Shown piece after piece: positions 19,591 through 35,585 of a DNA stretch of 39,589 bases. The notes below the pieces were generated by a model, which searched no databases, was not told the DNA's origin, and saw only the letters and a program-made list of their open reading frames with translations. Source of the DNA: Fidelibacterota bacterium (GTDB lineage: Bacteria; Fidelibacterota; Marinisomatia; Marinisomatales; JABMOV01). Position 1 is the first letter of the stretch. Every line of letters begins with the position of its first letter. The position numbers and the translations under genes were made by a program. The stretch lies in the NCBI GenBank assembly GCA_046861395.1, contig JBHHUC010000014.1, forward strand, positions 1 to 39,589. The letters are read 5' to 3'.

Positions 19591-19600
19591 GAGCCTATTT

Positions 19601-22600
19601 ATGAAACATTACAGAACTGGTTATCTCCTCCTCACTCTCCTGCTCTGTTCCGTTGGTCTGGGACAGCATGTTCCTTCCCCGGAACGAGGTAATCCTAATT
19701 TCCGCCGACAAACCGACATCGATGGCAATAAAGTCCGAACCTCCATCTTCAATTTCGGGTTGACGGGCCGGACCGGGGCTAACCCCGGTGAAATCCCATA
19801 TGAGTGGCCTATCAACTCCGGGAAACATTATATTGCTCTCACCGGACTTTTCGTTGGTTCACAAGTGGAAGTGGAAGAAAAGGAACCATACACCGATTTG
19901 AATGATAATCAATGGTATGACGAAGGAGAACCTTACGAAGATGTGAATGGCAACGGCGTCTGGGACGGCCGGGTAGCATTTGTCACCGTTCCCCTGGGTC
20001 GCACCGATAACCAGGGCAACTCCATGATGTTTGAACCGGTACCCGAATATTTGAATCCCAATTCCGATGGTATTGCCAAAAGTGATGAACCGGATTCATG
20101 GCCCCTCTTTTGGCCCGATAAGGAAGAAGATGAAACCGATCCCGGCTGGGCCGGGAGCTGGAACGGTTTTTTCGGCAAAAACCAGTTTAACGCCGACCAG
20201 GAAATCTATTTCAAGGTATCCGACGACAATAATTTCCTCCGCGGCTATACCTATTTACCCGATTCCACCGATATTTCACGGCGGGGCATGGGCGTTCTGT
20301 CCGGTGTACGCGTCATGGAATGGTCCCAGGTTCTGGTGGAAGATGTAGTATTCATTCTCTATGAAATCAAGAATGACGGAACCCGGGATTTGAACAATGT
20401 TTCCTTCTGTCTCTGGCTGGCCGATCTGGTGGGAGGAGACGGTGATTCCGGGGACGATACTCCTGATTTCGATCTCCTGTTTGATATTGCCTGGAGCATG
20501 GACGAAGACGGTATCGGAAATGCCGCTTTCGGATCGGATCCGGTGGGCGTGGCCGCCACGGCCTATCTGGAAACACCGGGCAATGATATTGACCGTATCG
20601 ACAATGACGGCGACGGAGAAACTGACGGGGTGGCTGTCACGGAAGAATGGGCGGAAACGGAAGACCGGACCAATGGCAAAGATGATAATTTCAATGGTCT
20701 GATCGATGAAAGCATGGCCCATGTTCCCTTCGGTAGCCAGGCCGGCGTCACCTTTAAGGACGGTATTGATGATAACGGAAACGGTGAATTGAACAGTCCC
20801 GTCATCACTCAGGAAATGATTCAGGCCGCTGCCAGTGATCTGACACCTACCTCCCCGACCTTACCCTATCCCGCCAACTGGCATCGCTGGCCGCCATCGC
20901 CGGAAAATGATGCCGTACAAAACGGCCGGATTCATTTGATCATGGTGGAAGATGACGATCTGGGGAAAGCCTTCGCCGACGGCATCGACAACGATGAAAG
21001 TCTGGAATATCCCATGGGCACCGGTGCCGACACGTCGGCCCCTCGTATCACCCAGGAAATCATCGATCAAGCCGCCAACGATATCTACCACCGTTACCAA
21101 GTCCCGGGCACCCAGATTATTCTCTATGATGTCGGTCCCGAAGATTTGGGGCTGCGCTATGCCGACGGTATCGACAATGACGGTGACGGCGCCATCGATG
21201 AAGGTATCGATGAAGGTGTTGATGAAATGATCGATGAATCCCGCGATAATGGAATTGACGATGATCTGGACTGGAATGCCCTGGCTGATGATGTAGGTCT
21301 GGACGGTGATGTGGCCACTTTCGATCCCGGTCAATCCGACGGACGTCCTACCTCCGGTTCCGGCACCAACCGTCCTGGAGAACCGAACATTGACAAGACC
21401 GATGTTTCCGAATCGGACCAGATGGGACTGACCCGGGTAAACTATGACGAAGCCGGCGGAATCCCCACGGCTCAGGATGCGGCGCTCTGGCTGTTTTACA
21501 TGGAACCGGGTGAATTCTGGCAACCACCTCCGGGAGGACAACCACCGGGGGATTATGATTTATTCGTAACGTCGGCCCTGTTCCCGCTGAAAGCCGGGGA
21601 CACGAAACGCATTTCCATGGCCGTATCCCTGGGCGAAGATGTGGAGGACGCCCGGCGCAACAAGGAAGTGGCCCAGCAGACCTACGACGAAGATTATCAG
21701 TTTGCCAAGGCGCCCCTGACACCACACCTGAAAGCCATCGCCGGAGATGGAAAAGTAACCCTCATCTGGGACGAAGTGGCGGAAACATCTTTTGATACCT
21801 ACATGGACGGAATCGGATCGGAAGGTCTGGACTTCGAAGGATACAAGATTTATAAGGCCACCGATCCCGAATTTGCCGATGCCTATGATATTACCGATGC
21901 CCAGGGTAATCTCACATTCTATACGCCGCTGGCCCGCTGGGATCTCATCGATGGAAAAGAGGGCTATCACCCCGTTGCTGTGAATGGAACCCATTACTGG
22001 CTGGGGGATGAAACCGGCCTGGTTCACAGTTATGTGGATGAAGATGTGGTCAACGGACAGACCTATTATTATGCCGTGGTGGCTTATGACTTTGGCGGCG
22101 ACATTACGAATAATATTCCCCCCACTGAATCATTGCGTCGGATTACGGTGAACAGTCTGACCGGCGAAATTAAAAAGGGTCCCAATGTCGCGGTGGTAAC
22201 ACCCAATCCGCCACCGGCGGGATTTGTCCCGGCAGCTATTGATAGCATGAAGCTAATTCAGGGGACAACCAGCAGTTTCCTGGGATATAGAATTGTGGAT
22301 CCCTTAGAGTTGAAACAGGATCATCGTTACCGGGTCACTTTCCAGGATACGACCATTCCCAAGAGTGGCGGCCCCTTCAGTCCTGGATATGATACCCTGA
22401 CCACTCGCTGTTTCACCCTGGCGGATATAACCGACACACTGTATGCTGACACTCTGATTAATTGCAGTGAGAAATTGAAAATCACCGATGAACAGCCGGT
22501 TATTGACGGGTTTCAGTTAATTCTGGATAATCAGGATTTCCTCTATCTCAATCAGAACACATCCCACTGGTCAGCCGATTCCATGTGGAAATTTGTCCTG

Positions 22601-23770
22601 AATGTATTCAGTCTTTCCACGGTGGTGGGGATTCCCCAACCGGCTGATTATCGCATTATCATGGACAAAAACAGCGAGGGCCGCCTCACCCTCACCTCGC
22701 CGCAAGGGACGACCATCATTGTGAGCGAAGGCTATTTTTCCGGCGACTTTGTCCAAACCGTGAAAGAATTTTCCGGCGAAAGGACACTGGGAACCTGGAC
22801 CCTAACAATCACAGACGAAGGACAGGATGGCGGTAACACAGCCAGTGGTATTTCATTACGGCTTACTGATACGACGAACACACATCATTATTACACTTTC
22901 CCGGATGGTCCCGCAGCCGACAGCTACACGACCACCACATCCTGGTCGCTGGATATCAATGATGACATGATTTTGGATGCTGTGCGGCTGACCTATACCT
23001 GGACGACCCAGGATACCGGGTTATTCCAAGCAACGGATTTTCAGGCCGGATTTACCCATTTTCAGGCCAAAGATGTCAATTTCCACGTGGAAAAACGAAC
23101 CCGGCTCACCGGTGATGAGACCGTGGACTGGGAAACCATTCCCTTTGCCTTCGGTGATTATTCACCTTTTGAAAGCGGTGGTGGCAATGGCCTGCTGGAT
23201 GCCGATTCGGTGGAAACGGACTGGGTCATTTTCCTTGATGGCGAAAAGAACGGAGAACCTCATCCCTCTTGGGTCTTTAAGATGTCTTTTCCTCGTCCCT
23301 GGCAGACCGAACCAATTTATGGTCCGGTTCCGGGTGATACCTGTCATCTCTTTATCAACAAGCCTTTCCTGTCGTCCGATATTTTCGAATTCACAACTAC
23401 CGCGGCTCATGTGGATAAAGATCTCATCAAGGAACAACTGGATAAGATCCGGGTGGTCCCCAATCCCTATATTGCGTCGGTCCCCTGGGAAAAACAGAAT
23501 TTATTCACATCCGGCCGGGGTCCGCGGTCCATCCATTTCAATCATTTGCCCCCGGTGTGCACCATCCGCATCTTCACCGTGTCCGGTGAACTGGTCCGGA
23601 CGATCCGGCATCGATCGGTTGATTTCAACGGAACCGCCGAATGGGATTTACTGACTAAGGATAACCTGTCAGCCGCTTACGGCGTTTATGTTTATCATGT
23701 CGAGGCGGAGGATCCGGATACGGGTCGCATACTGGGCAATCACATTGGCAAATTCGCAGTGATCAAGTAG
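19601..23770 (+). CDS. Large secreted acidic protein (1389 aa) with Ca-binding-type repeats, FN3-like domain and T9SS-like C-terminal domain
   Basis: Signal peptide from ATG 19601; DGIDNDGDG repeats; AGDGKVTLIWD...DFEGYKIYK...NGQTYYYAVVAYD; C-terminal IRVVPNPY...IRIFTVSGELVRTI...WDL...GVYVYHV...FAVIK. Confidence 0.85.
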   Translation: MKHYRTGYLLLTLLLCSVGLGQHVPSPERGNPNFRRQTDIDGNKVRTSIFNFGLTGRTGANPGEIPYEWPINSGKHYIALTGLFVGSQVEVEEKEPYTDLNDNQWYDEGEPYEDVNGNGVWDGRVAFVTVPLGRTDNQGNSMMFEPVPEYLNPNSDGIAKSDEPDSWPLFWPDKEEDETDPGWAGSWNGFFGKNQFNADQEIYFKVSDDNNFLRGYTYLPDSTDISRRGMGVLSGVRVMEWSQVLVEDVVFILYEIKNDGTRDLNNVSFCLWLADLVGGDGDSGDDTPDFDLLFDIAWSMDEDGIGNAAFGSDPVGVAATAYLETPGNDIDRIDNDGDGETDGVAVTEEWAETEDRTNGKDDNFNGLIDESMAHVPFGSQAGVTFKDGIDDNGNGELNSPVITQEMIQAAASDLTPTSPTLPYPANWHRWPPSPENDAVQNGRIHLIMVEDDDLGKAFADGIDNDESLEYPMGTGADTSAPRITQEIIDQAANDIYHRYQVPGTQIILYDVGPEDLGLRYADGIDNDGDGAIDEGIDEGVDEMIDESRDNGIDDDLDWNALADDVGLDGDVATFDPGQSDGRPTSGSGTNRPGEPNIDKTDVSESDQMGLTRVNYDEAGGIPTAQDAALWLFYMEPGEFWQPPPGGQPPGDYDLFVTSALFPLKAGDTKRISMAVSLGEDVEDARRNKEVAQQTYDEDYQFAKAPLTPHLKAIAGDGKVTLIWDEVAETSFDTYMDGIGSEGLDFEGYKIYKATDPEFADAYDITDAQGNLTFYTPLARWDLIDGKEGYHPVAVNGTHYWLGDETGLVHSYVDEDVVNGQTYYYAVVAYDFGGDITNNIPPTESLRRITVNSLTGEIKKGPNVAVVTPNPPPAGFVPAAIDSMKLIQGTTSSFLGYRIVDPLELKQDHRYRVTFQDTTIPKSGGPFSPGYDTLTTRCFTLADITDTLYADTLINCSEKLKITDEQPVIDGFQLILDNQDFLYLNQNTSHWSADSMWKFVLNVFSLSTVVGIPQPADYRIIMDKNSEGRLTLTSPQGTTIIVSEGYFSGDFVQTVKEFSGERTLGTWTLTITDEGQDGGNTASGISLRLTDTTNTHHYYTFPDGPAADSYTTTTSWSLDINDDMILDAVRLTYTWTTQDTGLFQATDFQAGFTHFQAKDVNFHVEKRTRLTGDETVDWETIPFAFGDYSPFESGGGNGLLDADSVETDWVIFLDGEKNGEPHPSWVFKMSFPRPWQTEPIYGPVPGDTCHLFINKPFLSSDIFEFTTTAAHVDKDLIKEQLDKIRVVPNPYIASVPWEKQNLFTSGRGPRSIHFNHLPPVCTIRIFTVSGELVRTIRHRSVDFNGTAEWDLLTKDNLSAAYGVYVYHVEAEDPDTGRILGNHIGKFAVIK

Positions 23771-23779
23771 GGTAAAACC

Positions 23780-24787
23780 ATGAAAAAATTATTATTCTCC
23801 ATCCTGTTTATCCTGAGTCTTCTGGCCGCTCAGAATGTCAATAAAACAGGGACAACGGCGGCCAATTTCCTGAAAATCGGTGTCGGGTCACGGGCCATCG
23901 GAATGGGAGGGGCCTTTGTGGCCCTAGCCGACGACGCTTCCGCCATGTTCTGGAATCCCGGCGGCACCGCCCGGCTGGAACGGTCGGAATTACTGGTCAA
24001 TCACACCCGTTGGCTGGCGGATATCGGATTTACCTATGTCGGCTATCTCATGCCCATTCCCCGCGTCGGGACGATTGGATTCAATGTCACATCCATGACG
24101 ATGGAACCCATGCTGGTAACGCGCTATGACCAGGAAGAAGGGACCGGGGAAACCTTTCGGGCCGGCAGTTATGCCGTAGGCGTGACCTATGCCCGTAAAT
24201 TGACGGATCGTTTCAGTATCGGTGGTAATGTTAAATATATCCGTGAATATATTTCCCAGAGTTCTTCCGGCGGTTTTGCCATGGATATTGGGACCATCTT
24301 CGTCACACCTTTCCGGGATATTCGTTTCGGTTCCAGCATTAGCAATTTCGGACAGAAATTGCAGATTTCAGGAAAAGATTTGCTGGTGAACAAGGATATT
24401 TCACCCATCGAAGGAAACAACGAAAGCGTAAATGCCTATTTATCCACGGATCGATTCGATCTGCCCCTCCTGTTGCGGGTCGGACTCTCCGGTGAGGCCA
24501 TCGACAACGATGCTCTTCGCATCACCTGGTCGGTGGACGGCATCCATCCTAATGATAATTCGGAATATGTCAATGCCGGACTGGAAATCGGACTTTTCCA
24601 TAATATGATCGCCCTGCGGGGAGGAATGAAATCATTGTACATGGAAGATGGCGAAGAAGAATTCACACTGGGCGGCGGATTGTACCTGCCGGTGAACCGC
24701 ACCATGAAACTGGATGCCAATTATGCCTTTGAGTCATTTGTTCATCTAAACAGCATTCATAAACTGACGATCCGGCTGATTTTTTAG
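23780..24787 (+). CDS. PorV/PorQ-like (UPF0164) outer-membrane beta-barrel
   Basis: GTTAANFLKIGVGSRAIGMGGAFVA.ADDASAMFWNPGG; alternating beta-strands; terminal Phe. Confidence 0.88.
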   Translation: MKKLLFSILFILSLLAAQNVNKTGTTAANFLKIGVGSRAIGMGGAFVALADDASAMFWNPGGTARLERSELLVNHTRWLADIGFTYVGYLMPIPRVGTIGFNVTSMTMEPMLVTRYDQEEGTGETFRAGSYAVGVTYARKLTDRFSIGGNVKYIREYISQSSSGGFAMDIGTIFVTPFRDIRFGSSISNFGQKLQISGKDLLVNKDISPIEGNNESVNAYLSTDRFDLPLLLRVGLSGEAIDNDALRITWSVDGIHPNDNSEYVNAGLEIGLFHNMIALRGGMKSLYMEDGEEEFTLGGGLYLPVNRTMKLDANYAFESFVHLNSIHKLTIRLIF

Positions 24788-24869
24788 CCATTTCTTCGCT
24801 CCGTCACTCCTCCGTTTTACGTCTTGTGAAAAACGTTTTGAGCAGGTAAATTCGCTCAATGATTTTAAG

Positions 24870-24891
24870 CGTAACTCATATGTGAGTTACG
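24870..24891. promoter_or_regulatory. Palindromic operator 2 (candidate TrmB site)
   Basis: CGTAACTCA-TATG-TGAGTTACG, perfect 9-bp arms, about 50 bp upstream of ATG 24943. Confidence 0.8.
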
Positions 24892-24942
24892 GAATTTTAT
24901 TGTTCCTTAACAATGGACAATCCTTAACGAAGGGGTCATAAC

Positions 24943-27453
24943 ATGAAAAGAATGTTAACAGTCCTTCTGTTGTTCTTCACCTCCTATTTGTTTGCAGCAA
25001 ATGTTACGTTTGTCGTAAACATGTCAACCTATGGAGACGGCGCAACAGATTCGACCAGTACCGTTCACATCCGCGGCAGCATGAATGGCTGGTCCGATGC
25101 CAATCCGCTGACCAATGTTGGTGGCGACTATTGGTCCACAACGATCGCTCTCACTGCCGGTGATGTAGCGGAATATAAATTTACACACACAGATGACCTG
25201 GGCAACCTGACCTGGGAAGGCGATCCCAACCGGACATTGACCGTCCCTACCAATGACACGACCGTCGTGCATTATTTTGGTCCGTCCGATTCGCCCTTGA
25301 CATACACCGACAGCACCGATGTCTGGTTCCGCGTAAACATGTCCGGCGTAGCCGGCTATGATGGCGGACAGGTTGATGTCCGCGGTGACTTTAACGGCTG
25401 GTCTGCCGGCAGCAACCTAACCCAGGAATCCAATACCGATTTCTGGTCCGGCCAAATCAGCATGGGTGCTGGCACCTACGGATACAAATTTGTCTGGACC
25501 GGCTCTGACGGAGCAACCAACTGGGAAAGTATTGACAACCGTATGATTACGGTCAGCGCCGATACAACCCTGGCCTGGAAATGGTTCAACAATGAAGCAC
25601 CGGCTGCCGCTGTGGATACCTTCACAGTCAAATTCACCGTAAATACTGCCACACAATCGGGCTTAACCGATTCCACCGTGGCCGGTTTTTATGTCAGTGG
25701 TAGCTTCAACGGTTGGTCGCAGGCCGATACTCTGATGGCCGACGGTGATTACTGGTCCAAATCCTTAGACATTATCGGCGACGCCGGCGGCGTTGATGTG
25801 GAGTATAAATTCCGCTATACCAGCCTGGCTGAGCAGGAATTCTGGGAAAGCATCAGCAACCGCACCGCTACGATATCCTCTGACACCATTCTGCCACTGG
25901 CCTACTGGGATGATGTGGCGCCCTACACTCCCACCGATAGCCTGGACGTCTGGTTCCGTGTCAACATGGAAGCGCAGTACGATTTTGGCTATAACGGCGA
26001 ACAAGTGGATGTGCGCGGCAGCATGAACGGTTGGTCCGCAGGCAGCGATTTGACTCAGGAAGCAGACAGCATGTACTGGTCAGGTCTTATCAGCTTGCCC
26101 AACAGTTCCGCTGGAACGCTCCAGGAATACAAATTTGTCTGGACGGGCAGCGATGGCTCCACCCACTGGGAGAGCATCGATAACCGTTCATTTACTGTCC
26201 ACCAGGACACGACCCTGGCCTACAAATATTTCGATAACATGGCACCTTCCACTGAAGATCCGGTGACGGCTTATGTCTATTTCACCGTTGACATGGCAGC
26301 CTATGAAGATATCGGAATCTTCAGCGTAGTACGCAACGATACGGTTCAGGTTCGCGGTGGCTTTAACGGCTGGAGCAGTTCCGCCCTACCGGACGGGTCC
26401 AATATCAATATGACCCGCATTCCCGGCACCACGGTGTATGAACTGGCAGCGCCGATCTTGAACTTCCCCGGCACACCGGATGAGTATAAATACTACATCA
26501 AGTGGAGCCCCGAATCCCTGACATTACTGGGAGATCCTTATCCCAACATCGACTGGAATGCCGACTGGGGCTATGAAGTCCCGCCGACCTACGGCGCCGG
26601 CAATCGTCCCTACACATTTGAAGGCGATCCCAACAATGTGCAGAATATCGGTTTGGAATATTACATGGACCTGCCTTTTGAAGGTATCATCCCCGAAGGT
26701 CATACCATCGACCTGACGTTCAGCGTTGATATGTCCGCCGCCCCGCTCTTTGACGGCAGTACTGACACCTTGTGGCTCTATGTCAAGGATCCCATCGCGG
26801 CGCATCTTTGGGGTTATTTCCCGGAAAGCACACCGTTTGATGATTTGCGGATGAATGACGACGGTTTGAATGGTGACACAACCGCCGGTGACGGAATCTA
26901 TTCCGTAACCGTGCCTTACACCGGAAAAGCACCCTATGCGATGGTCTATGTCTATCACTTTACAGGACCGACCAACGAACTGGAAGAAGGCGGTGGCTTT
27001 GCCTTCGGACGTTTCCGTTGCCGATTCATTGAACCATCCAGTGTGTCCCCGGACGGGCCTGTATGGCCTTCATATTTTACCTTCCCGCAGGATACCTGGA
27101 CTACCGATCCTCCTCTGACGGTTGAAACACCGCCGGATATTTTCACGGTCGGCACCGATCCGGAGCAGGTTCCCTATCAATTCGTTCTGGAACAGAACTA
27201 TCCCAATCCGTTTAACCCTGAAACGGAAGTGAAATTCACGTTACCGGAAGCCGGTGATGTGACATTTACCGTTTATAATGTCCTGGGACAAAAAGTGCTC
27301 TCCTATGATCGCACCTTCTCCCGTCCGGGTGTTTACGGGTTACGCTGGAATGGTTTGAACCAGGCCGGTATCGCGGTTCCCAGCGGTGTCTATTTCTATG
27401 AATTGAAAGCCGGTGATCACCGCGCGATCAAGAAAATGACATTGCTGAAATAA
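24943..27453 (+). CDS. T9SS type-A-CTD protein with about six tandem CBM20/CBM48-like modules; no catalytic domain recognised
   Basis: Repeated FxVNM...V(R/S)GxxNGWS...W...EYKF...WE...NR; MNDDGLNGDTTAGDGIYS; C-terminal LEQNYPNPFNP...GVYFY...KKMTLLK. Confidence 0.85.
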   Translation: MKRMLTVLLLFFTSYLFAANVTFVVNMSTYGDGATDSTSTVHIRGSMNGWSDANPLTNVGGDYWSTTIALTAGDVAEYKFTHTDDLGNLTWEGDPNRTLTVPTNDTTVVHYFGPSDSPLTYTDSTDVWFRVNMSGVAGYDGGQVDVRGDFNGWSAGSNLTQESNTDFWSGQISMGAGTYGYKFVWTGSDGATNWESIDNRMITVSADTTLAWKWFNNEAPAAAVDTFTVKFTVNTATQSGLTDSTVAGFYVSGSFNGWSQADTLMADGDYWSKSLDIIGDAGGVDVEYKFRYTSLAEQEFWESISNRTATISSDTILPLAYWDDVAPYTPTDSLDVWFRVNMEAQYDFGYNGEQVDVRGSMNGWSAGSDLTQEADSMYWSGLISLPNSSAGTLQEYKFVWTGSDGSTHWESIDNRSFTVHQDTTLAYKYFDNMAPSTEDPVTAYVYFTVDMAAYEDIGIFSVVRNDTVQVRGGFNGWSSSALPDGSNINMTRIPGTTVYELAAPILNFPGTPDEYKYYIKWSPESLTLLGDPYPNIDWNADWGYEVPPTYGAGNRPYTFEGDPNNVQNIGLEYYMDLPFEGIIPEGHTIDLTFSVDMSAAPLFDGSTDTLWLYVKDPIAAHLWGYFPESTPFDDLRMNDDGLNGDTTAGDGIYSVTVPYTGKAPYAMVYVYHFTGPTNELEEGGGFAFGRFRCRFIEPSSVSPDGPVWPSYFTFPQDTWTTDPPLTVETPPDIFTVGTDPEQVPYQFVLEQNYPNPFNPETEVKFTLPEAGDVTFTVYNVLGQKVLSYDRTFSRPGVYGLRWNGLNQAGIAVPSGVYFYELKAGDHRAIKKMTLLK

Positions 27454-27515: not shown

Positions 27516-29489
27516 ATGGAATCTCCGTCGCAAACAGGGAATACTTCTCCACCTCCGCTTATTTTCCGAATCTTCCTTATCCTGCTTCCCCTGCTTTTTT
27601 TCCTGGGTCTGGAGCTGACCCTGAGACTGACCTGGGATGGAGCCACCAATCTGGCTCTATTTATTCCCGACCCCTATTCGTCACAGTATTTCACTGTGAA
27701 CCAGATTGCAGGAAAACGGTATTTCTCCGGCAATTCCTATGGTTCCTTCGGAACCCAGGATACTTTCCTCAAGCAAAAACCCGCTGACGGAATTCGAATA
27801 TTTGTCCTGGGCGGCTCTTCCACCGCCGGTTATCCCTATATGTATGCCGGTGGGTTTCCGGCCATGCTGCGACAACGCCTGGAAATCCTGTATCCTGAAA
27901 ATTTAATTGAAGTCATTAATCTTGGCATGACGGCCGTCAACAGCTACACTGTGCGCGACTTTGCCCTGGAATGCATGGATTATAATCCTGATGCCCTGGT
28001 GATCTATACCGGGCATAATGAATTCTACGGTGCTCTGGGAACCGGGTCGTCACAATCCTCTCTGTTCGGTGCCAATCGCCCTCTGATTTTCCTGGTGCTG
28101 AAAGTGCGCCGGCTGGCGACGTATCGCCTTATTCGGTCTCTGTTGACTCGGATTCGTCCATCAGGATTTTCCCCCGGTCATCAAACTCTCATGGCACGGA
28201 TGGCACGAAACCAGCACATCGAAAAAGACGGCCCGCTTTATCGGAAAACACTGGACGTTTTCCAGAAAAACATGCAGAACATTCTGGTTGAAGGGAAAAA
28301 CCATGGTATTCCTATCGTGATCGGGTCCCTGGCCAGTAATGTGAAAAATCAACCCCCCTTTGTATCAATCGTCCCGCAAGGCTGTGATTCCACCGCTATT
28401 GATCGGCGCCTGCAGCAGGCCAGAAACCTGATGGACTCCGGCCGGCATGAATCAGCCCACGCAGTCCTGGATTCCCTGATCCAGGCTTGTCCCGGACATG
28501 CTAAGGTTTTTTACACTGCGGGACAGTGTGCTACAGCCATGGGCGATTCAATTGCAGCATTGACCGACTATACCCGGGCCAGGGATTATGATGGACTACG
28601 GTTCCGCGCCAGCAGTGACCTGAACCATATCATCAAGACCCTGTGCCAGACCAATAAATCGGTTTATTATTCTCCGGTGGAAGAGGCGTTCCAAGATATT
28701 TCCCCCGGAGGTATCATTGGGAATAATCTTATTCTGGAGCATCTTCATCCCAATCTTTCCGGGTATTATCATATGGCCCGCACTTTCGCCGAGACATTGA
28801 TTGATTCCGTCTTACCTGCGCCCCGGCTCATGCTGGCGGCATCCGATACACCGGCCTCTCGGTCCCTGGCAGTGACCCGACTCGACTCTGTCATCGCGAA
28901 CATGCGGATTCGTCTTCTGACCTCCGGCTGGCCCTTCACCTCACACCGGCGGTTTCTCACCCTGGATGACATTCAACCGCAAAACGATATTGAACGCTTG
29001 GCTCTGGCGGTTCTGAACAAAACATCCAACTATGAAAAAGCCCACGTACAATTGGCTCAATCCTATGAAAAGGCCGGACAGTGGCGGCAAGCCGTCCGGG
29101 AATACAGAGCCTTGGCGGCTACCTTTACCAACAATGACAGTCCATTAAAAGCCATGGGTAAAATTCTGGTGGACCGACGGCAGTTTTCCCATGCCTTACC
29201 CATTTTATTGAAAACTCTACGGTTGGTTGACGATGGTTTCAGTTATAAATGGGCTGGAACCATTTTATTGAATCAGCAACAGGTTGACCGTGCCCTGCCC
29301 CTGTTGGAGAAGGGAAAGCAATATCTGGCGCGCGATACACAATTATTATATAATCTTTCCGGAGCCTATTATATCAGCGGACAAAAACAAAAGGCGATTA
29401 AAACACTGAATGATCTGCTCCGAATTGATCCCGGACAGGAGGAAGCCCGGCAATTCCTGTCCCGTATTCAGTCGGCCGGCGGTTCATGA
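27516..29489 (+). CDS. Membrane-anchored SGNH/GDSL-hydrolase-fold protein with TPR repeats
   Basis: N-terminal TM helix; FVLGGSS, INLGM, YTGHNEFYG, LEHLHPN; helical TPR-like C-terminus. Confidence 0.85.
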   Translation: MESPSQTGNTSPPPLIFRIFLILLPLLFFLGLELTLRLTWDGATNLALFIPDPYSSQYFTVNQIAGKRYFSGNSYGSFGTQDTFLKQKPADGIRIFVLGGSSTAGYPYMYAGGFPAMLRQRLEILYPENLIEVINLGMTAVNSYTVRDFALECMDYNPDALVIYTGHNEFYGALGTGSSQSSLFGANRPLIFLVLKVRRLATYRLIRSLLTRIRPSGFSPGHQTLMARMARNQHIEKDGPLYRKTLDVFQKNMQNILVEGKNHGIPIVIGSLASNVKNQPPFVSIVPQGCDSTAIDRRLQQARNLMDSGRHESAHAVLDSLIQACPGHAKVFYTAGQCATAMGDSIAALTDYTRARDYDGLRFRASSDLNHIIKTLCQTNKSVYYSPVEEAFQDISPGGIIGNNLILEHLHPNLSGYYHMARTFAETLIDSVLPAPRLMLAASDTPASRSLAVTRLDSVIANMRIRLLTSGWPFTSHRRFLTLDDIQPQNDIERLALAVLNKTSNYEKAHVQLAQSYEKAGQWRQAVREYRALAATFTNNDSPLKAMGKILVDRRQFSHALPILLKTLRLVDDGFSYKWAGTILLNQQQVDRALPLLEKGKQYLARDTQLLYNLSGAYYISGQKQKAIKTLNDLLRIDPGQEEARQFLSRIQSAGGS

Positions 29490-31303
29490 AACGACGTATC
29501 TTTCAATTTGGATTAATCCTGATACCGGTTGTCATCCTGATGCTCACGGAAGGATTCCTGCGACTCACCGGACTAGGTCCGGACACTCGACTTTTTATTC
29601 CCATTAATACTTCAACCGAACTATGGGGCGCCAATCCAAATGTTGTTCTGCGGTATTTTCCCCGGACTGGTCTCAGCGGTTTCGGGGCTGAGAATCTATT
29701 TTACCAACCCAAACCGGCCGGCGTGTATCGTATCATAGCCCTGGGTGGTTCCACCACAGCCGGGTTTCCTTATTATTTCAACGGCAGCTTCCCGGCTCGG
29801 TTACGGCAATATCTGGCGGCAGCCGATACGACACAAACCTATGAAATGATCAATCTTGGTATGTCAGCCGTGAATTCAACCACCATACGGGACATTATCG
29901 ATGAATGTCTGGCCATTGAGCCGGATCTCATCATTCTATATGCCGGGCACAATGAATTTTACGGTGCCTTTGGCCGGGCGGCGGAGCAGGGATTACTGCG
30001 CCTCCCTGGAATGAAACGCATGTTGTTGTTCCTGGAGAAATCGCGGCTCTATCAAACCATTCGGCGCCTGGTCTACAGTCTTCGGCCAGCACGGGATCAT
30101 GAAACACTAATGGCGATTATGGCCCAGGGACAGGTGTTTCCACCCGGGGATCGGAGTCGGCGGGATACCTTGGATGAATTTGAAGAAAATATGGCTCATG
30201 TATTATCGGTGACCGGTGAAAACGACGTTCCTCTGATCCTGTGCACGGTTGCTTCCAACCTCAGGAACCAGCGTCCCCTGCATTCCCTACCCGAACTCCG
30301 ACTGGCGGGCTATACAGCTGATGAACTCTACCTGGCCGGGCAGAATGCTCTGATTGCTGGACAGGATTCCATTGCCCGGGATTATTTTACCCTGGCACGG
30401 GACATGGATGCCATGCCCTTTCGGGCGCCATCGGCCATTAACCGGATCATCCGACAACTCGCCGGTCGTTATGCCATATCCCTGGCGGATGTGGCGGCGG
30501 AATTTGAGGCTTACGCCCGGTACGGGATTCCCGGTGATCCCCTGTTTCTGGAACATGTCCATCCGACGCCGGTTGGAACCGATTTAATTGTCCAAACCAT
30601 ATGGAATACTATGCAGCGGGATACAATGTATTTTGGCCTGTCCCGACCGTTTCAGGTGAAAAATGATCATCCCCCTTCCCGTTTGACGGCCCTGGATTCG
30701 GTCATCGCCCGAATGCAACTGGACATTCTCACATCCAATCCACCCTTTACTTCAGCGGCGGGAAAATCCCTGGCCTCAATCACGCCGACGAATCAGATTG
30801 AAAAGATTGCCTGGGATATTCTGGCGGGGAAAAAAGACTTTAAATCCGGACACCTGGCCCTGGCGGCCTATTATCAGTCCCAATCCTTACATGAACAGGC
30901 TGTCCGGGAATGTCTGGCCCTGGTTGCCGCGCTGCCCCTTGACAAAGCTGTACACCGGGCTCTGGCATCAGCCGGAATGACGGGGAAGAACCCGGCCCTT
31001 GTGCGAAAAGCCACCAATGCTATCCTGGCTTTGGATTCGCTGGACGCCTTTGCCAATAAATGGGGCGGCATCTATGCCTTGCAGAACCGGCAGGAGGAGA
31101 AAGCGCTGCGCCTGTTAAAACGGGCCAAACGTCTCCGGGATGATGACCAGATTCGTTACAATCTCAGCGGTGCCTACGTGGCGCAAAACAAGCTCGAAGC
31201 GGCCGCCGCGGAACTGGATACTCTGCTGCAACGCAATCCGGACTACTCTCAGGCCCGATCATTTAGGGCCTTTCTCCGCACGCAAATGTCATTTCAACAA
31301 TAA
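29486..31303 (+). CDS. Second SGNH/GDSL-TPR protein (tandem paralog)
   Basis: IALGGST, INLGM, YAGHNEFYG, LEHVHPT; ATGA overlap with the previous gene. Confidence 0.85.
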   Translation: MKRRIFQFGLILIPVVILMLTEGFLRLTGLGPDTRLFIPINTSTELWGANPNVVLRYFPRTGLSGFGAENLFYQPKPAGVYRIIALGGSTTAGFPYYFNGSFPARLRQYLAAADTTQTYEMINLGMSAVNSTTIRDIIDECLAIEPDLIILYAGHNEFYGAFGRAAEQGLLRLPGMKRMLLFLEKSRLYQTIRRLVYSLRPARDHETLMAIMAQGQVFPPGDRSRRDTLDEFEENMAHVLSVTGENDVPLILCTVASNLRNQRPLHSLPELRLAGYTADELYLAGQNALIAGQDSIARDYFTLARDMDAMPFRAPSAINRIIRQLAGRYAISLADVAAEFEAYARYGIPGDPLFLEHVHPTPVGTDLIVQTIWNTMQRDTMYFGLSRPFQVKNDHPPSRLTALDSVIARMQLDILTSNPPFTSAAGKSLASITPTNQIEKIAWDILAGKKDFKSGHLALAAYYQSQSLHEQAVRECLALVAALPLDKAVHRALASAGMTGKNPALVRKATNAILALDSLDAFANKWGGIYALQNRQEEKALRLLKRAKRLRDDDQIRYNLSGAYVAQNKLEAAAAELDTLLQRNPDYSQARSFRAFLRTQMSFQQ

Positions 31304-33052
31304 TATTTTCTGTACCTGACGCGTCCCCAGGGAACCGACTTCCAATAAATATTGGCCGGAGGAAACATTCAACAGTGAAAAATGAATTTCATGCCGCCCC
31401 GGCATTAATAGTCCCACCTGGCGGGACCAGACCTGCCGTCCGGCAATATTGCGCACGGCAACACTTATTTCTCCTTCCGATCGGACCATGACCGGGACGG
31501 TGAAGTGGCCGTTGAAAGGATTGGGATAGACCGGCAAAATAGTAAAGGTCGTCGGCGATATTTCCGATTCAGTGGTCAAGGGAGTCCAGCCCCCATTTTC
31601 CGTGAATAAGTAATATTGATTGATAGAAAGATTCCAATAGTGTTCCGCGATTCCCGACGGCCATAGGATTTCCAAGGTGTCTACCATCGTAGCGGTATCC
31701 AGACCAAACCAGGACCATTCGGAATTCTGGGAACAATAGCCGGTTCCCGTTACTCGATGCTGCCGCTGAATGTGGGAACCGACTCGTAATCGGATGGTGG
31801 CGCCAATGCCGGAAAGGTTGGAAGTTACACCCTCCAGCCGGACGGCAATCCAGTTTCCCGTGACGGTTTCATTCCGATACAGTTTCAGGGAACCTTCCGT
31901 TGTCGGCGTGCCCACCAGGATCATGTCCAGATCCCCGTCGCGATCAAAATCACACCAGGCCGATCCTATGCCGTCATTCCAGCTCTGAACCCCGGCCACT
32001 GCAGAAATTTCCTCAAAACTGCCGTTGCCCAGATTGCGAAATAGCGAATTGGGGACCTGACCGAAACCGGATTGATTATTATTATATATATCCAAGCAGC
32101 CGTCAAAATCGGCATCGAAGAAAAAAGTTCCCCAGGCCATGCTATTGACCGCATCAGCCACACCGGCAGCAGCGGTCACATCGGTGAATGTTCCATCGCC
32201 GTTATTCCGTAACAGCGAATTCTCATCCAGATTGGTGGTATAAATATCATCCCAGCCATCCCTGTCATAATCCCCAACGGCCACGCCCATGCCCTGGACG
32301 GCCAGATGAACCCCGGCCGCATTGCTCATGTCGGTATAGGCACCGTAGGCTTCCCGTCGCAACAGGATATTTCCTTTATAGCCGTCCTGTGTAATGAAAA
32401 TATCTTCATCCCCGTCATTGTCATAATCCAGGGCTGAGCAGCCCATGACCAGACCACCCGATTGCGGTCCCGTGGCATTGACCTGACTTGCCACTTCCAT
32501 GAATGTGCCGTCCTGATTATTCCGGTAAAGCAGATTCTGCTGGGTCAATCGTCCCACATAGAGATCCAACCAGCCGTCACGGTTTTCATCGAACCAGAAT
32601 CCGCCCCGGACATCACCGTCCACTGTAATGCCGGCCGGGATCGTGGCATCCGTAAAAGTACCGTTGCCTTCATTATGGTAGAGTCGGGAAGATCCTCCTG
32701 TAGCACCCAGGAAAAGGTCTGTGTATCCGTCATTGTCATAATCTCCGGCGGTAGCCAGGCGCAGTGGTTCAGTGGTCCCAATTCCGGCAGTTTCACTTGA
32801 TTCGCTAAACTGAAGATTTCCCAGGTTTTTCAGCAATAAATGCTCTCCCTGATGATCTGCGATAAACACATCTTCCCAACCGTCCCCGTCATAGTCCAAA
32901 ATGCAAACACCTTCGCCCTGGAAGGACCAGGTCAATCCGGCGGCCAGAGTCTGATCGGTGAATACCGGAGATTGCGGCAGGGCACGGTTAACCAGGAGGA
33001 CCGGAAGCATGCCGCCCACTAGCGTGATGAGACGTGTGATATTGAATGGCAT
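31289..33052 (-). CDS. ASPIC/UnbV (CRTAC1-like) FG-GAP repeat protein with T9SS CTD
   Basis: Repeated DYDxDGxxD and LYxNxGxGTF; GIGA...GYCSQN...FGL...ILWPSG; VYPNPFN...ILLLK; start moved to ATG 33052 to give a signal peptide and avoid overlap with tlpA. Confidence 0.88.
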   Translation of the reverse strand: MPFNITRLITLVGGMLPVLLVNRALPQSPVFTDQTLAAGLTWSFQGEGVCILDYDGDGWEDVFIADHQGEHLLLKNLGNLQFSESSETAGIGTTEPLRLATAGDYDNDGYTDLFLGATGGSSRLYHNEGNGTFTDATIPAGITVDGDVRGGFWFDENRDGWLDLYVGRLTQQNLLYRNNQDGTFMEVASQVNATGPQSGGLVMGCSALDYDNDGDEDIFITQDGYKGNILLRREAYGAYTDMSNAAGVHLAVQGMGVAVGDYDRDGWDDIYTTNLDENSLLRNNGDGTFTDVTAAAGVADAVNSMAWGTFFFDADFDGCLDIYNNNQSGFGQVPNSLFRNLGNGSFEEISAVAGVQSWNDGIGSAWCDFDRDGDLDMILVGTPTTEGSLKLYRNETVTGNWIAVRLEGVTSNLSGIGATIRLRVGSHIQRQHRVTGTGYCSQNSEWSWFGLDTATMVDTLEILWPSGIAEHYWNLSINQYYLFTENGGWTPLTTESEISPTTFTILPVYPNPFNGHFTVPVMVRSEGEISVAVRNIAGRQVWSRQVGLLMPGRHEIHFSLLNVSSGQYLLEVGSLGTRQVQKILLLK

Positions 33053-33122
33053 TACTGACGATAAATCTATTTTTATCCCGGTGATATTACGGTAATTTTT
33101 CAGGCAAGGAAGAAAATATCCA

Positions 33123-33593
33123 ATGAAAATAATACTCCCCATACTCCTCTTTTCATTAACCCTGATCCAGGCGGAAAATCCGCCCTTGGATTGGAGCCGG
33201 TTTCGCGCCAAGACCGTCGCCGGGGATACGGTTCTTCTCACAACCGTACTGGATGATACTAAACCTACACTACTGTATTTCTGGTCTATTTACTGCTCAG
33301 TCTGTGCCCGTGATCTGCCGAAAACGGAAGCCCTCTTCGCCAAATATAACGATCAGGTCAATATGCTGGGAATTGCCTGGCGGGAATCCCCGGACAAGGT
33401 AAACCGTCATTTCGAAAAGAAAAAGCATCGCATTCATACCGTCATCGATTTATCCGGTAATTTATTCTCCCAGTTCGGTGTAGGGACAACACCTACCATT
33501 ATTATTTTGGACCGCAACCGGGAGATTGTCCTGCAGGGATATCCGTCCCGGCGCAAGATTACCAAAACCCTGGCGTCCCTGCTGGTACTATGA
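33123..33593 (+). CDS. Exported TlpA/ResA-like thioredoxin-fold protein
   Basis: Signal peptide; LLYFWSIYCSVC; FGVGTTPTIIILDR (cis-Pro loop). Confidence 0.88.
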   Translation: MKIILPILLFSLTLIQAENPPLDWSRFRAKTVAGDTVLLTTVLDDTKPTLLYFWSIYCSVCARDLPKTEALFAKYNDQVNMLGIAWRESPDKVNRHFEKKKHRIHTVIDLSGNLFSQFGVGTTPTIIILDRNREIVLQGYPSRRKITKTLASLLVL

Positions 33594-34537
33594 AGCGCTG
33601 GTCCATTCTGCTCTTTATTCTGGTAACCCTGCAGTGGGGACTGGCGCAGGGCGGAATCAGCTGACGGCGGCCAACCCTCCCGGGCGGGAGCCTGCTGCAA
33701 CAAACGGTTCAGGATGAAAATCAACTTCTCCTGGGCTTTTCTTATTATCACGAATATCTGGATTCGCCGCTATACGGCACCAAACCGATTCCGAATATCA
33801 ACCGGGAACGAACCAATAACAGTACCGTGTCCCTCCTTCTGTCATATACCTTTCTCCGCAACTGGGGTCTGACGGTCGTGGTTCCCTATCAATCGGTCCT
33901 TAATGAAAAAATCCTATTTCGGGGACAATATGACGAACAGTATGACGGTGGAAAATATTTCCGGGAAGCGAAAGGTATAGGAGATATTTTCTTTCTGGTC
34001 AGCCGTTCCTTCTCTTTTTATCTGCCGGTAACCCTTTCCGCCGGAATAAAATTGTCCAACGGGTCCATCAATGCGGTGGATATCTATGATAAACGCATAT
34101 CCGATAACCTGCAAATCGGGTCGGGGTCCATCGATCCCCTGCTTGCCATCTACGTCAATCAATTCGCCGGATCGTGGGTGCTCTCCGGCGGCCTCTATAC
34201 TAAAATTAGTTTACGGGAAAATATTTACGGTTATCAGTTTGGCAATGAATTGAACGGACTTCTGGAAGGGAATTTCGTCGCGGCTGATGACTGGTACGGC
34301 GGCCTCCAGCTCCATTATCTCTTCACGACACGCGATCGGTATGAATACGGCAAGATTGCCCGGGATCGTGGCGGTCGCTGGCTGTTCGTTGCGCCTCGTT
34401 TCGGAATTCATATTACTGACGAACTGGATGTGGAAGCCCAGTTCCATCTTCCCGTCTATCAGAACGTAAACGAAAGCCAGCTCACGTCGGATTATGCCCT
34501 GACCCTCTCCCTGGCCTATCGGTGGCAGCATGAATAG
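33590..34537 (+). CDS. Outer-membrane beta-barrel 'transporter' (MetA-phenol-pathway-like), candidate selenoprotein with in-frame TGA at 33662-33664
   Basis: ATG 33590 overlaps the tlpA stop (ATGA) and encodes MKRWSILLFILVTLQWGLA-QGGIS-[TGA]-RRPTLPGG..., in frame with ORF 33827-34537 and with no other stop; barrel motifs GIGD, LQIGSGSIDP, YQFGNE, PVYQNVNESQL, LSLAYRW. Confidence 0.75.
33665..33697 (+). promoter_or_regulatory. Candidate bacterial SECIS element
   Basis: Directly after the TGA: CGGCGG-CCAACC-CTCCC-[GGGC]-GGGAG-CCTGCTG; upper 5-bp stem, G-first loop beginning 17 nt after the TGA, lower stem with G-U pairs. Confidence 0.65.
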
Positions 34538-35585
34538 ATTTCTTGCCCCTGTCTTCCTGATCCTTTTTTCCGGCTGTTCTCTTTATACCGATGAGGGGAA
34601 ACCCGATATTTTTTATACGTTTGAGGATTTCGATATTTTATCCCTGGGTAACAGCATTGCCGATATGCAGGCCGGCCCCGACGGGAATTATCTCTATTTG
34701 GCCGACTATAACAATCATGCCATTCTACAAGTGGATGTTACCGGGTCCATGGCCCTCCACGGTCAAGTCTGGGTTGGCGCCCGGCCCGTGGCCCTGGATA
34801 TTTCTCCCGATCAGACGAAACTGGTGGTGGCGCTAAACGGTGAATCGCGTATCGTAATCATTGATCTGGCTTCCTTTACCGTGGTGCAGTCGGTTCCCAT
34901 TTCGCTGAGCAACGTCACAGACTTGGCCTGTGTCACCAATGACTTGGTCTATGTTTCATCAGCCACCGATCCCAGTGCCATTTCCCTGTCCCTGGCAGAT
35001 TCCACGGAAACAGGTCAATCGGTGCACAGCGGCATGCTAACGGCCCTTCCGGCGGATACGTCCCTGTTGGTAGCCACTTCCGTAACGCTTAAAAAATACC
35101 GGGCCGCCACCCCGCTGGCCACGCAATATCCCTTCATTGCCGATCCCTACGGATTTACTGCCCATCTCTACGATGCCGTTCTCAGTCCGGATACCAGGAC
35201 GCTCTTCATCGGTCTGGGCGATGAAAACAATCCTCATGCCGTCACGGAAGTTTGGGCCTATGATACGGACAATTTAACCTTGCAGGGAAAATACAAGACC
35301 AATTCCGCCGGACTGGGAATTGCCGTGCGACCTGACGGACAGCGGGTGTTCGTAGCGCCCATGGATGCCGATCCGGCCGGTGTATTCATCATCGAATTTG
35401 ACACGGCAACCAAGCTGGAAACCCATTATTATCTGGTGGCCGGTAATTTGAAGGCCAAGGGATTGGTGGCGGACCCCGGTGGACGATATATTTATGCCCT
35501 GGTCAATTCCCCGGGAGATGGGGATTCATTCGAACCGTATAATAGTTTCTCCTACGATCTACAGCGAATTCGAATTGTGGAATAA
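34530..35585 (+). CDS. YncE/YVTN-like beta-propeller lipoprotein
   Basis: Lipobox FSGC; repeated PDGxxLY, SPDQTKL, RPDGQRVFV, DPGGRYIY blade motifs; overlaps the upstream stop. Confidence 0.82.
   Translation: MNRFLAPVFLILFSGCSLYTDEGKPDIFYTFEDFDILSLGNSIADMQAGPDGNYLYLADYNNHAILQVDVTGSMALHGQVWVGARPVALDISPDQTKLVVALNGESRIVIIDLASFTVVQSVPISLSNVTDLACVTNDLVYVSSATDPSAISLSLADSTETGQSVHSGMLTALPADTSLLVATSVTLKKYRAATPLATQYPFIADPYGFTAHLYDAVLSPDTRTLFIGLGDENNPHAVTEVWAYDTDNLTLQGKYKTNSAGLGIAVRPDGQRVFVAPMDADPAGVFIIEFDTATKLETHYYLVAGNLKAKGLVADPGGRYIYALVNSPGDGDSFEPYNSFSYDLQRIRIVE

Follow-up and report, generated by a model that had tools for sequence, protein, structure and literature searches.

A review catalogue of prokaryotic selenoproteins names 119 families, only two of which, the GSU2204 family and a TonB-dependent receptor, belong to the outer membrane (PMC13188914). 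The former is an MtrB/PioB barrel (NF041027) and the latter the FCYXU receptor (NF049945); both are predicted outer-membrane barrels with selenocysteine (Sec). A different kind of outer-membrane channel is represented by the COG4313 protein Pput2725, whose N-terminal 14 residues enter from the periplasmic side and fill its lumen (PMC4493636). Here we focus on a gene of a Fidelibacterota bacterium that joins these two themes. It lies on the plus strand at 33590..34537 of a contig of 39,589 nucleotides (JBHHUC010000014.1, assembly GCA_046861395.1), the whole of which is called the window below, and its reading frame, conservation and structural model point to a full-length, Sec-containing outer-membrane beta-barrel of 315 amino acids and of the COG4313/FapF type. 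From sequence comparison, it is almost certain that the in-frame UGA at codon 25 of this gene directs the insertion of Sec.

The selenoprotein family represented by this gene is new: its members are Sec forms of COG4313-like barrels of the outer membrane and probably have a lipoprotein as partner. Table 1 of the catalogue lists no COG4313-type barrel among its 119 families (PMC13188914), and a search of the full-text literature, with subscription journals largely outside its scope, returned no paper on the family. Geobacter ExtI was considered as a selenoprotein porin and dropped, PMC5877670 naming ExtKL as the selenoprotein.

The reading frame, its UGA and the SECIS hairpin

The open reading frame (ORF) track calls the barrel gene from a GTG at 33827 with 236 amino acids, and the public protein collection carries the same truncated form (P0002), just as the first-pass annotation of the window had expected of automated pipelines. 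That annotation had placed the true start at an ATG at 33590, coupled to the stop of the upstream gene tlpA, and had read through a TGA to obtain 315 residues. The letters bear this out: the ATG overlaps the TGA stop of tlpA (ctATGa), and the frame, MKRWSILLFILVTLQWGLA|QGGIS-TGA-RRP..., is open to the TAG at 34535-34537, with 290 codons following the TGA. The signal peptide it had seen, judged here from the sequence and by comparison with homologues, is cleavable and 19 amino acids long (33590..33646, plus strand, G-L-A|Q), and the TGA (33662..33664, plus strand) falls on residue 25, which is residue 6 of the mature protein. Among 113 homologous loci with enough upstream DNA, 103 have an in-frame ATG 15-36 codons ahead of the mature Gln together with a hydrophobic core, while the other 10 have the core with no ATG in range; Ala stands at position -1 of the cleavage site in 104. 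In the mature barrel, Sec is the sole residue with sulfur or selenium, and two Arg directly follow it.

The in-frame TGA is conserved. The comparison drew on 121 loci, of which 56 belong to named genomes, 62 to metagenomes and 3, the window among them, to genomes that were searched. Six do not reach codon 25; in the other 115 (78 distinct 42-nt sequences) the codon is always TGA. Conservation of the TGA among homologues was one of the checks that the first-pass annotation had proposed, and because it holds in every locus, a sequencing error is excluded. The named hosts belong to five phyla, namely Marinimicrobia/Fidelibacterota, KSB1, Calditrichota (Calditrichaceae), Latescibacterota and Gemmatimonadota; no relative turned up in the viral contigs searched. 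With few exceptions, the context reads Q-[GP]-G-[IV]-[SN]-TGA-R-R-P-x-L-P-G-G, and a second stop is present in just 1 of the 115 matches. Another proposed check, confirmation of the TGA in reads, was followed in contigs from four sequencing runs, all four of which have the same letters at the TGA, though all come from one sample that is possibly the source itself. These runs carry the label hydrothermal vent metagenome. No RNA run is among those listed as containing the stretch, which has no bearing on whether the gene is expressed.

The claim that the genetic code is not reassigned also stands. TGA closes 38 of 100 complete barrel genes, so that both uses of the codon occur within one gene and the code is therefore not reassigned; in the source genome it closes 415 of 1063 ORFs of at least 300 amino acids, and no tRNA other than tRNA-Sec has a UCA anticodon. 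Trp does appear at the Sec position in some database proteins (at least nine, and P0135). These are table-4 mistranslation artefacts, in which the terminal TGA is translated as Trp as well (P0008 compared with locus L094, P0022 with L068). Most other database homologues start just past the TGA.

The Sec machinery, which the first-pass annotation had suggested looking for, is found in the source genome (G000, 94% complete): selA (E 5e-158) with selB next to it on the downstream side, a selD that itself contains one in-frame TGA, and tRNA-Sec, all over the cut-off. The selB gene looks split over two contigs (the end of G000:C75 and the start of C58, covering model positions 1-293 and 459-577), probably by an assembly break. 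Within the phylum, 19 of 301 genomes have the barrel gene, a set that overlaps the main loci, and all 19 have the TGA; selA is in 18 of them, and in the nineteenth (G250, 84% complete) both selB and tRNA-Sec are present. Three families are almost wholly without selA, and the gene is absent from all 65 of their genomes. Of 31 entries chosen among gene-bearing genomes, 26 have selA, and of the five that lack it G250 and G327 are one genome and G321 has tRNA-Sec. This co-occurrence lends modest support to Sec. The source genome also holds other candidate selenoprotein genes. A UshA-like gene on the minus strand of G000:C66, with a C-G-U motif, a SECIS-like hairpin (SECIS, Sec insertion sequence) and 346 codons past its TGA, probably belongs to a known selenoprotein family, and two adjoining thioredoxin-like W-U-x-x-C genes on the plus strand of G000:C1 (about 8131 and 9724) have near-identical SECIS hairpins and 424 and 199 codons after the TGA.

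The hairpin that had been noted after the TGA, with a G-first apical loop 17 nt downstream, is exactly in place (CTCCC-GGGC-GGGAG, 33677..33690, plus strand) and proves to be conserved and covarying. Across the family it takes the form CTYCCR-GK-YGGRAG from +13 to +26, within the codons for L-P-G-G-S, with an invariant G at +19. In the catalogue, the model of a bacterial SECIS asks for a loop of 3-9 nt, a stem of 4-16 bp, a spacing of 16-37 nt and a minimum free energy of -7.5 or lower, and the consensus places a G in the first two loop positions, as N1-G-[GU]-N-N2 with N1 and N2 paired (PMC13188914). The hairpin fits this model with its 5-bp stem, 4-nt loop and spacing of 17, and the covarying +18:+21 pair supplies the paired N1:N2 around G-[GU]. 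The apical G is also found at +18/+19 in selD, the ushA-like gene and the two WUxxC genes of the source genome, where the family labels are readings of motifs. A crude genome-wide scan for a TGA followed by a hairpin flagged 60 of 4577 TGAs, mostly noise, and served only to find the SECIS of recognisable selenoproteins.

Folding energy was rejected as evidence for the hairpin and covariation used in its place. The 14-nt stem alone folds at -7.0 kcal/mol and the stretch from UGA to +32 at -13.4 kcal/mol, and over three windows the energy is not above that of shuffled sequence (z = 0.54, -0.64 and -0.25). Among the 78 distinct sequences, Watson-Crick pairing is found in 75 at +13:+26, 76 at +14:+25, and in all 78 at both +16:+23 and +17:+22. 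The +15:+24 pair is C-G in 48, U-A in 24 and U-G in 6, hence Watson-Crick in 72 of 78, compared with a mean of 42.5 and a maximum of 60 in 10,000 shuffles; the +18:+21 pair, A-U in 39 and G-C in 32, is Watson-Crick in 72 as well. These two rank top among all wobble pairs tested. All four of their combinations are found, in loci whose GC content spans broad ranges that overlap, and base composition is therefore unlikely to be the cause of the covariation; two further genomes (L162, L163) have +15:+24 as A-U and G-C. The Leu codon of the stem is CTY in 78 of 78 sequences as against 30% elsewhere in the same genes. In a formal count over 30 hand-picked loci, 96.7% of cells are paired and double changes number 22, with none of 500 shuffles as high and slid controls far below; kinship of the sequences inflates such counts, and the pair swaps arise on several separate branches of the tree.

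The barrel fold and the place of the selenocysteine

An AlphaFold2 model of the mature read-through protein (pLDDT 92, pTM 0.88) agrees with the outer-membrane beta-barrel named in the first-pass annotation. Its closest structural match is Pput2725 (PDB 4rl8; Z 26.1, rmsd 2.2 A over 252 of 268 residues, 10% identity), with the 12-stranded barrel superposing. FapF (PDB 5o65; Z 23.6, rmsd 2.7 A over 244 residues, 14% identity) is second in this ranking and is the top Foldseek match. Autotransporters rank lower, with Z about 20, and an earlier model gave the same families. On the strength of these models, the barrel fold is confirmed and is of the COG4313/FapF type. Sequence searches alone gave little: the barrel query has no Pfam match, none to PF13557 (Phenol_MetA_deg) above its gathering score, although this family matches 3 of 34 aligned relatives (best E 1.2e-5) and 10 of 24 more distant ones. 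At E cut-offs of 0.01 and 0.1 NCBIfam had no family that matched the query, nor any that matched the barrel part of the 34 relatives, and a search of PDB sequences with the barrel profile gave no match at E <=1.

The barrel thus resembles the COG4313/PF13557 channels Pput2725, TcpY and SphA in fold, in similar size and in having an N-terminal segment ahead of strand 1. It differs in that this segment is about 11 residues longer and bears Sec. The structural alignment begins at model residue 12 against residue 1 of Pput2725 (model residues 1-20 being of low pLDDT), and Sec therefore sits on an extension of a Pput2725-type N-terminal segment, with only 19 residues between it and the first strand. 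A further difference is linkage, here to a propeller lipoprotein and TlpA and not to aromatic degradation. FapF, an amyloid secretion channel, shares the fold; the Sec barrel has instead a short, Sec-bearing N-terminus and no amyloid-like operon was seen. Compared with the GSU2204 family and the FCYXU receptor, the other predicted outer-membrane Sec barrels, it has a small 12-stranded fold with a lone Sec, no CxxU or CXXCH motif and no NCBIfam match.

The first-pass annotation had noted that barrels of this type often carry Cys just past the signal peptide, and in distant homologues Cys does align with codon 25. A profile search of 1.84 billion representatives gave 1661 proteins at E <=0.001, the best 150 of which were examined. 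Positions were matched with a hidden Markov model of the barrel only and a gap-free count back from strand 1, which left 89 of 151 homologues with an anchored, intact N-terminus. Cys is exactly at the Sec position in 69 of these 89, with Cys at +1 in 61 and at +2 in 10, and nearly always this residue opens a Q-x-C-C/C-x-C motif. Sec therefore stands where the motif has its first Cys, and Arg where it has the second. An alignment by eye on the mature Gln had seemed to put Sec off the Cys pair, and was overturned by the barrel-anchored count. The Q-x-C-C proteins in question are unnamed "transporter" barrels (P0143-P0268), their first Cys in register with Sec, that differ from the Sec barrel in having only 20-25% identity, a second Cys where it has Arg, and DUF3179 as a neighbour in place of the propeller lipoprotein. 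Among 14 proteins scanned, none of the Cys type has an NCBIfam model. Profile-profile comparison of the Sec type with the Q-x-C-C type gives a probability of 100% and E 3e-43. The low identity may explain how the family escaped screens for Cys/TGA pairs.

In a tree of 62 rows with a midpoint root and many long branches outside the clade, the Sec forms make up one clade (support 100/99). All Cys homologues are distant, and the two close members without TGA carry Ser; these two (P0005, P0009) are known from proteins only, and a change of TGA to TCA would be of one base. No Cys follows Sec in any of 100 complete genes, and any redox partner would therefore have to be external.

Neighbouring genes and the propeller lipoprotein

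The gene upstream, tlpA (33123..33593, plus strand), encodes a TlpA/ResA-like exported thioredoxin with a CSVC motif and no Sec (Pfam AhpC-TSA/Redoxin/Thioredoxin_8). Downstream, a YncE/lactonase-like beta-propeller lipoprotein (34530..35585, plus strand; Pfam Lactonase, Atlas) has its ATG at 34530 within the last codons of the barrel gene. A scan for promoters and terminators was uninformative, and found no terminator-like site between the three plus-strand genes save a weak one inside tlpA. Of 102 loci that extend at least 1500 nt downstream, 87 have the propeller as the very next gene, and of 103 that extend at least 700 nt upstream, 39 have a TlpA gene with CxxC immediately before the barrel. 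The upstream TlpA was also considered as a further selenoprotein and rejected, no match having an internal stop.

Co-folding of the propeller with the part of the barrel after the TGA gave a complex score of 0.62, compared with 0.00 for the best of three control pairs. Of 157 solved complexes 116 attain the mark set for this score, as do 2 of 215 mismatched pairs; these rates are only approximate for alignments of our own making, as used here. Between runs at least 55% of contacts agree, and the partner has a pLDDT of at least 86. On the barrel, the predicted contact falls on an IPNINR loop and an FRGQ loop (residues 62-72 and 108-113). These are distal loops, belonging to hairpins one and two, and by standard barrel topology they would be extracellular, making the propeller a surface lipoprotein. 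From these models the partnership of barrel and propeller is probable. Neither this partner nor the two Ser-bearing members had been noticed in the first-pass annotation. Complexes of a barrel with a surface lipoprotein as its lid are formed by SusCD and BtuB-BtuG, which are large TonB-dependent transporters. The present pair would likewise consist of a barrel and a co-encoded lipoprotein on its outer loops, but with a small barrel that lacks a TonB-type plug domain.

Some Latescibacterota and Gemmatimonadota genomes (loci L055-L060, L064, L065, L069-L073, L077 and L119) have two Sec-barrel paralogues, one with the propeller and without TlpA, the other with TlpA, without the propeller and with altered outer loops. 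The 15 propeller-less loci have QEVT and LPGQ in the contact loops, compared with mostly [RK]ERT and [FL]RGQ elsewhere. A thioredoxin is fused to the C-terminus of 8 of 24 hand-picked barrel relatives (P0129, P0130, P0136, P0138, P0139, P0140, P0154 and P0199). One of their clusters is named as Poribacteria. As called, none of these proteins has a signal peptide, a hint that they too may have a TGA hidden upstream.

Around the 14 Cys-type loci of this phylum, taken with 1.5 kb flanks, a DUF3179 gene adjoins the barrel in at least 10, with MerB and an HMA/pyridine-nucleotide oxidoreductase in one (L189) and zf_CopZ in another (L174); AhpC-TSA adjoins the Cys-type relative L024. In L164-L173, barrels of the Q-x-C-C/C-x-C type are paired with lipoprotein-like DUF3179 proteins in a parallel barrel-plus-lipoprotein module. 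DUF3179 is itself among the catalogued selenoprotein families (PMC13188914).

Elsewhere in the window, large secreted proteins with apparent C-terminal sorting domains and a PorV-like gene occupy 19493-27453 and 31289-33241, upstream of the module (labels read from the sequence). At 27516-31303 there is a tandem pair of genes for membrane proteins with a GDSL/SGNH hydrolase plus TPR, the assignment of the first having Pfam support.

A proposed selenocysteine gate and its alternatives

What was computed is the conserved UGA, the covarying SECIS, the Sec machinery, the correspondence of Cys and Sec, the fold and the gene linkage. The mechanism that we propose goes further. SelB would read the in-frame SECIS and Sec would be inserted at UGA-25 to give a full-length exported selenoprotein, which after signal cleavage would fold into a 12-stranded COG4313-type barrel with its N-terminal Q-G-G-I-S-U-R-R-P plugging or gating the lumen from the periplasmic side. 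The propeller lipoprotein on the outer loops would serve as a lid or a substrate-capture subunit, the lone Arg-flanked selenolate would capture a soft-metal ion or a sulfur- or selenium-reactive solute as it crosses the outer membrane, and the exported TlpA would keep the selenolate reduced or release the adduct. We infer both the position of Sec in the lumen and its reaction with TlpA. The first-pass annotation had likewise arrived at an exported selenoprotein channel, a reading that the comparisons support, and had put Sec in a presumed N-terminal plug region. The scheme as a whole, a Sec-gated barrel with a propeller lid and reset by TlpA, seems to us evenly balanced between right and wrong, and the case for a metal or thiol-reactive solute as the substrate falls a little short of that.

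Several observations weigh against this scheme. The first 20 residues, on which the gate depends, are modelled at a pLDDT of only 64-68. TlpA is not in the neighbourhood of 64 of 103 loci, the propeller-less paralogues form a single clade and count as one event, and the links to metals come from only 2 of the 14 Cys-type loci with their 1.5 kb flanks, while among the top 40 neighbour clusters of the Sec-type loci, read by eye, no metal-handling gene was seen. Ser at the Sec position in P0005 and P0009, which are nested in the Sec clade, indicates that the chalcogen can be lost. On the side of Sec insertion, selA is common anyway in the phylum (224 of 301 genomes), which makes co-occurrence weak evidence, and in two gene-bearing metagenome-assembled genomes of unreported completeness (G305, G332) no selA, selB or tRNA-Sec was found over the cut-off.

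The alternative that survives best, though unlikely, keeps the same selenoprotein and makes it a FapF-like channel for the export or anchoring of the propeller or another surface protein, with Sec and TlpA tuning the redox state of cargo or plug. FapF, a polypeptide secretion channel, is after all the top Foldseek match, and lipoprotein genes adjoin both types of locus (the propeller the Sec type, DUF3179 the Cys type). Yet the uptake-type Pput2725 scores higher than FapF, the 19 residues from Sec to the first strand leave no room for a long N-terminal domain, and the propeller is missing from the 15 paralogue loci. It is improbable that Sec is inserted and chemically idle, the UGA being a selenium-dependent on-switch for synthesis of the channel. 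Failed read-through at so early a UGA would leave only a 24-residue peptide, two nested members do have Ser, and Sec has no intramolecular Cys partner, all of which would suit a switch; a side-chain function is what is suggested by a Sec that lies in the mature chain in exact register with the Cys of 69 of 89 homologues, and the flanking G-[IV]-S-U-R-R-P is almost invariant.

Ranking after this, and likewise improbable, is a conventional COG4313 channel that passes hydrophobic or small organic solutes and whose Sec does no more than stabilise or redox-gate the plug. The fold matches, and TcpY, SphA and Pput2725 are implicated in the uptake of hydrophobic compounds (PMC4493636), which is a further point against our proposed Sec gate. 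Charged and polar residues abound in the invariant columns, however, identity to Pput2725 is just 10%, and no aromatic-degradation genes were seen in the same 40 neighbour clusters. Finally, that TGA is a true stop (in a pseudogene, by sequencing error or after a leader peptide) or encodes Trp or Gly under another code is very improbable and largely refuted, since what might favour it, Trp in some database proteins and a hairpin energy no higher than that of shuffles, is outweighed by the misread terminal TGAs of those same proteins, the use of TGA as a stop in barrel genes and long ORFs, the sole UCA anticodon on tRNA-Sec, the signal peptide conserved upstream and the near absence of a second stop.

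Soluble redox enzymes make up most of the catalogued bacterial selenoproteins; the Sec barrel is a small COG4313 channel that falls outside both of the outer-membrane barrel families listed there. Only tentatively, and at a rather low probability, can the Sec-gate proposal be extended to a general one, in which small channels would use an Arg-flanked Sec as a chemical gate that takes a soft metal or a sulfur or selenium species from a propeller lid and is reset by a periplasmic thioredoxin. For the family itself, public protein sets either lose the reactive residue along with the signal peptide or put Trp in the place of Sec. The large unannotated group of Q-x-C-C barrels gains a residue that marks function, its first Cys being the one turned into Sec, and TlpA, the barrel and the propeller lipoprotein together make up a testable three-gene module with a predicted interface.
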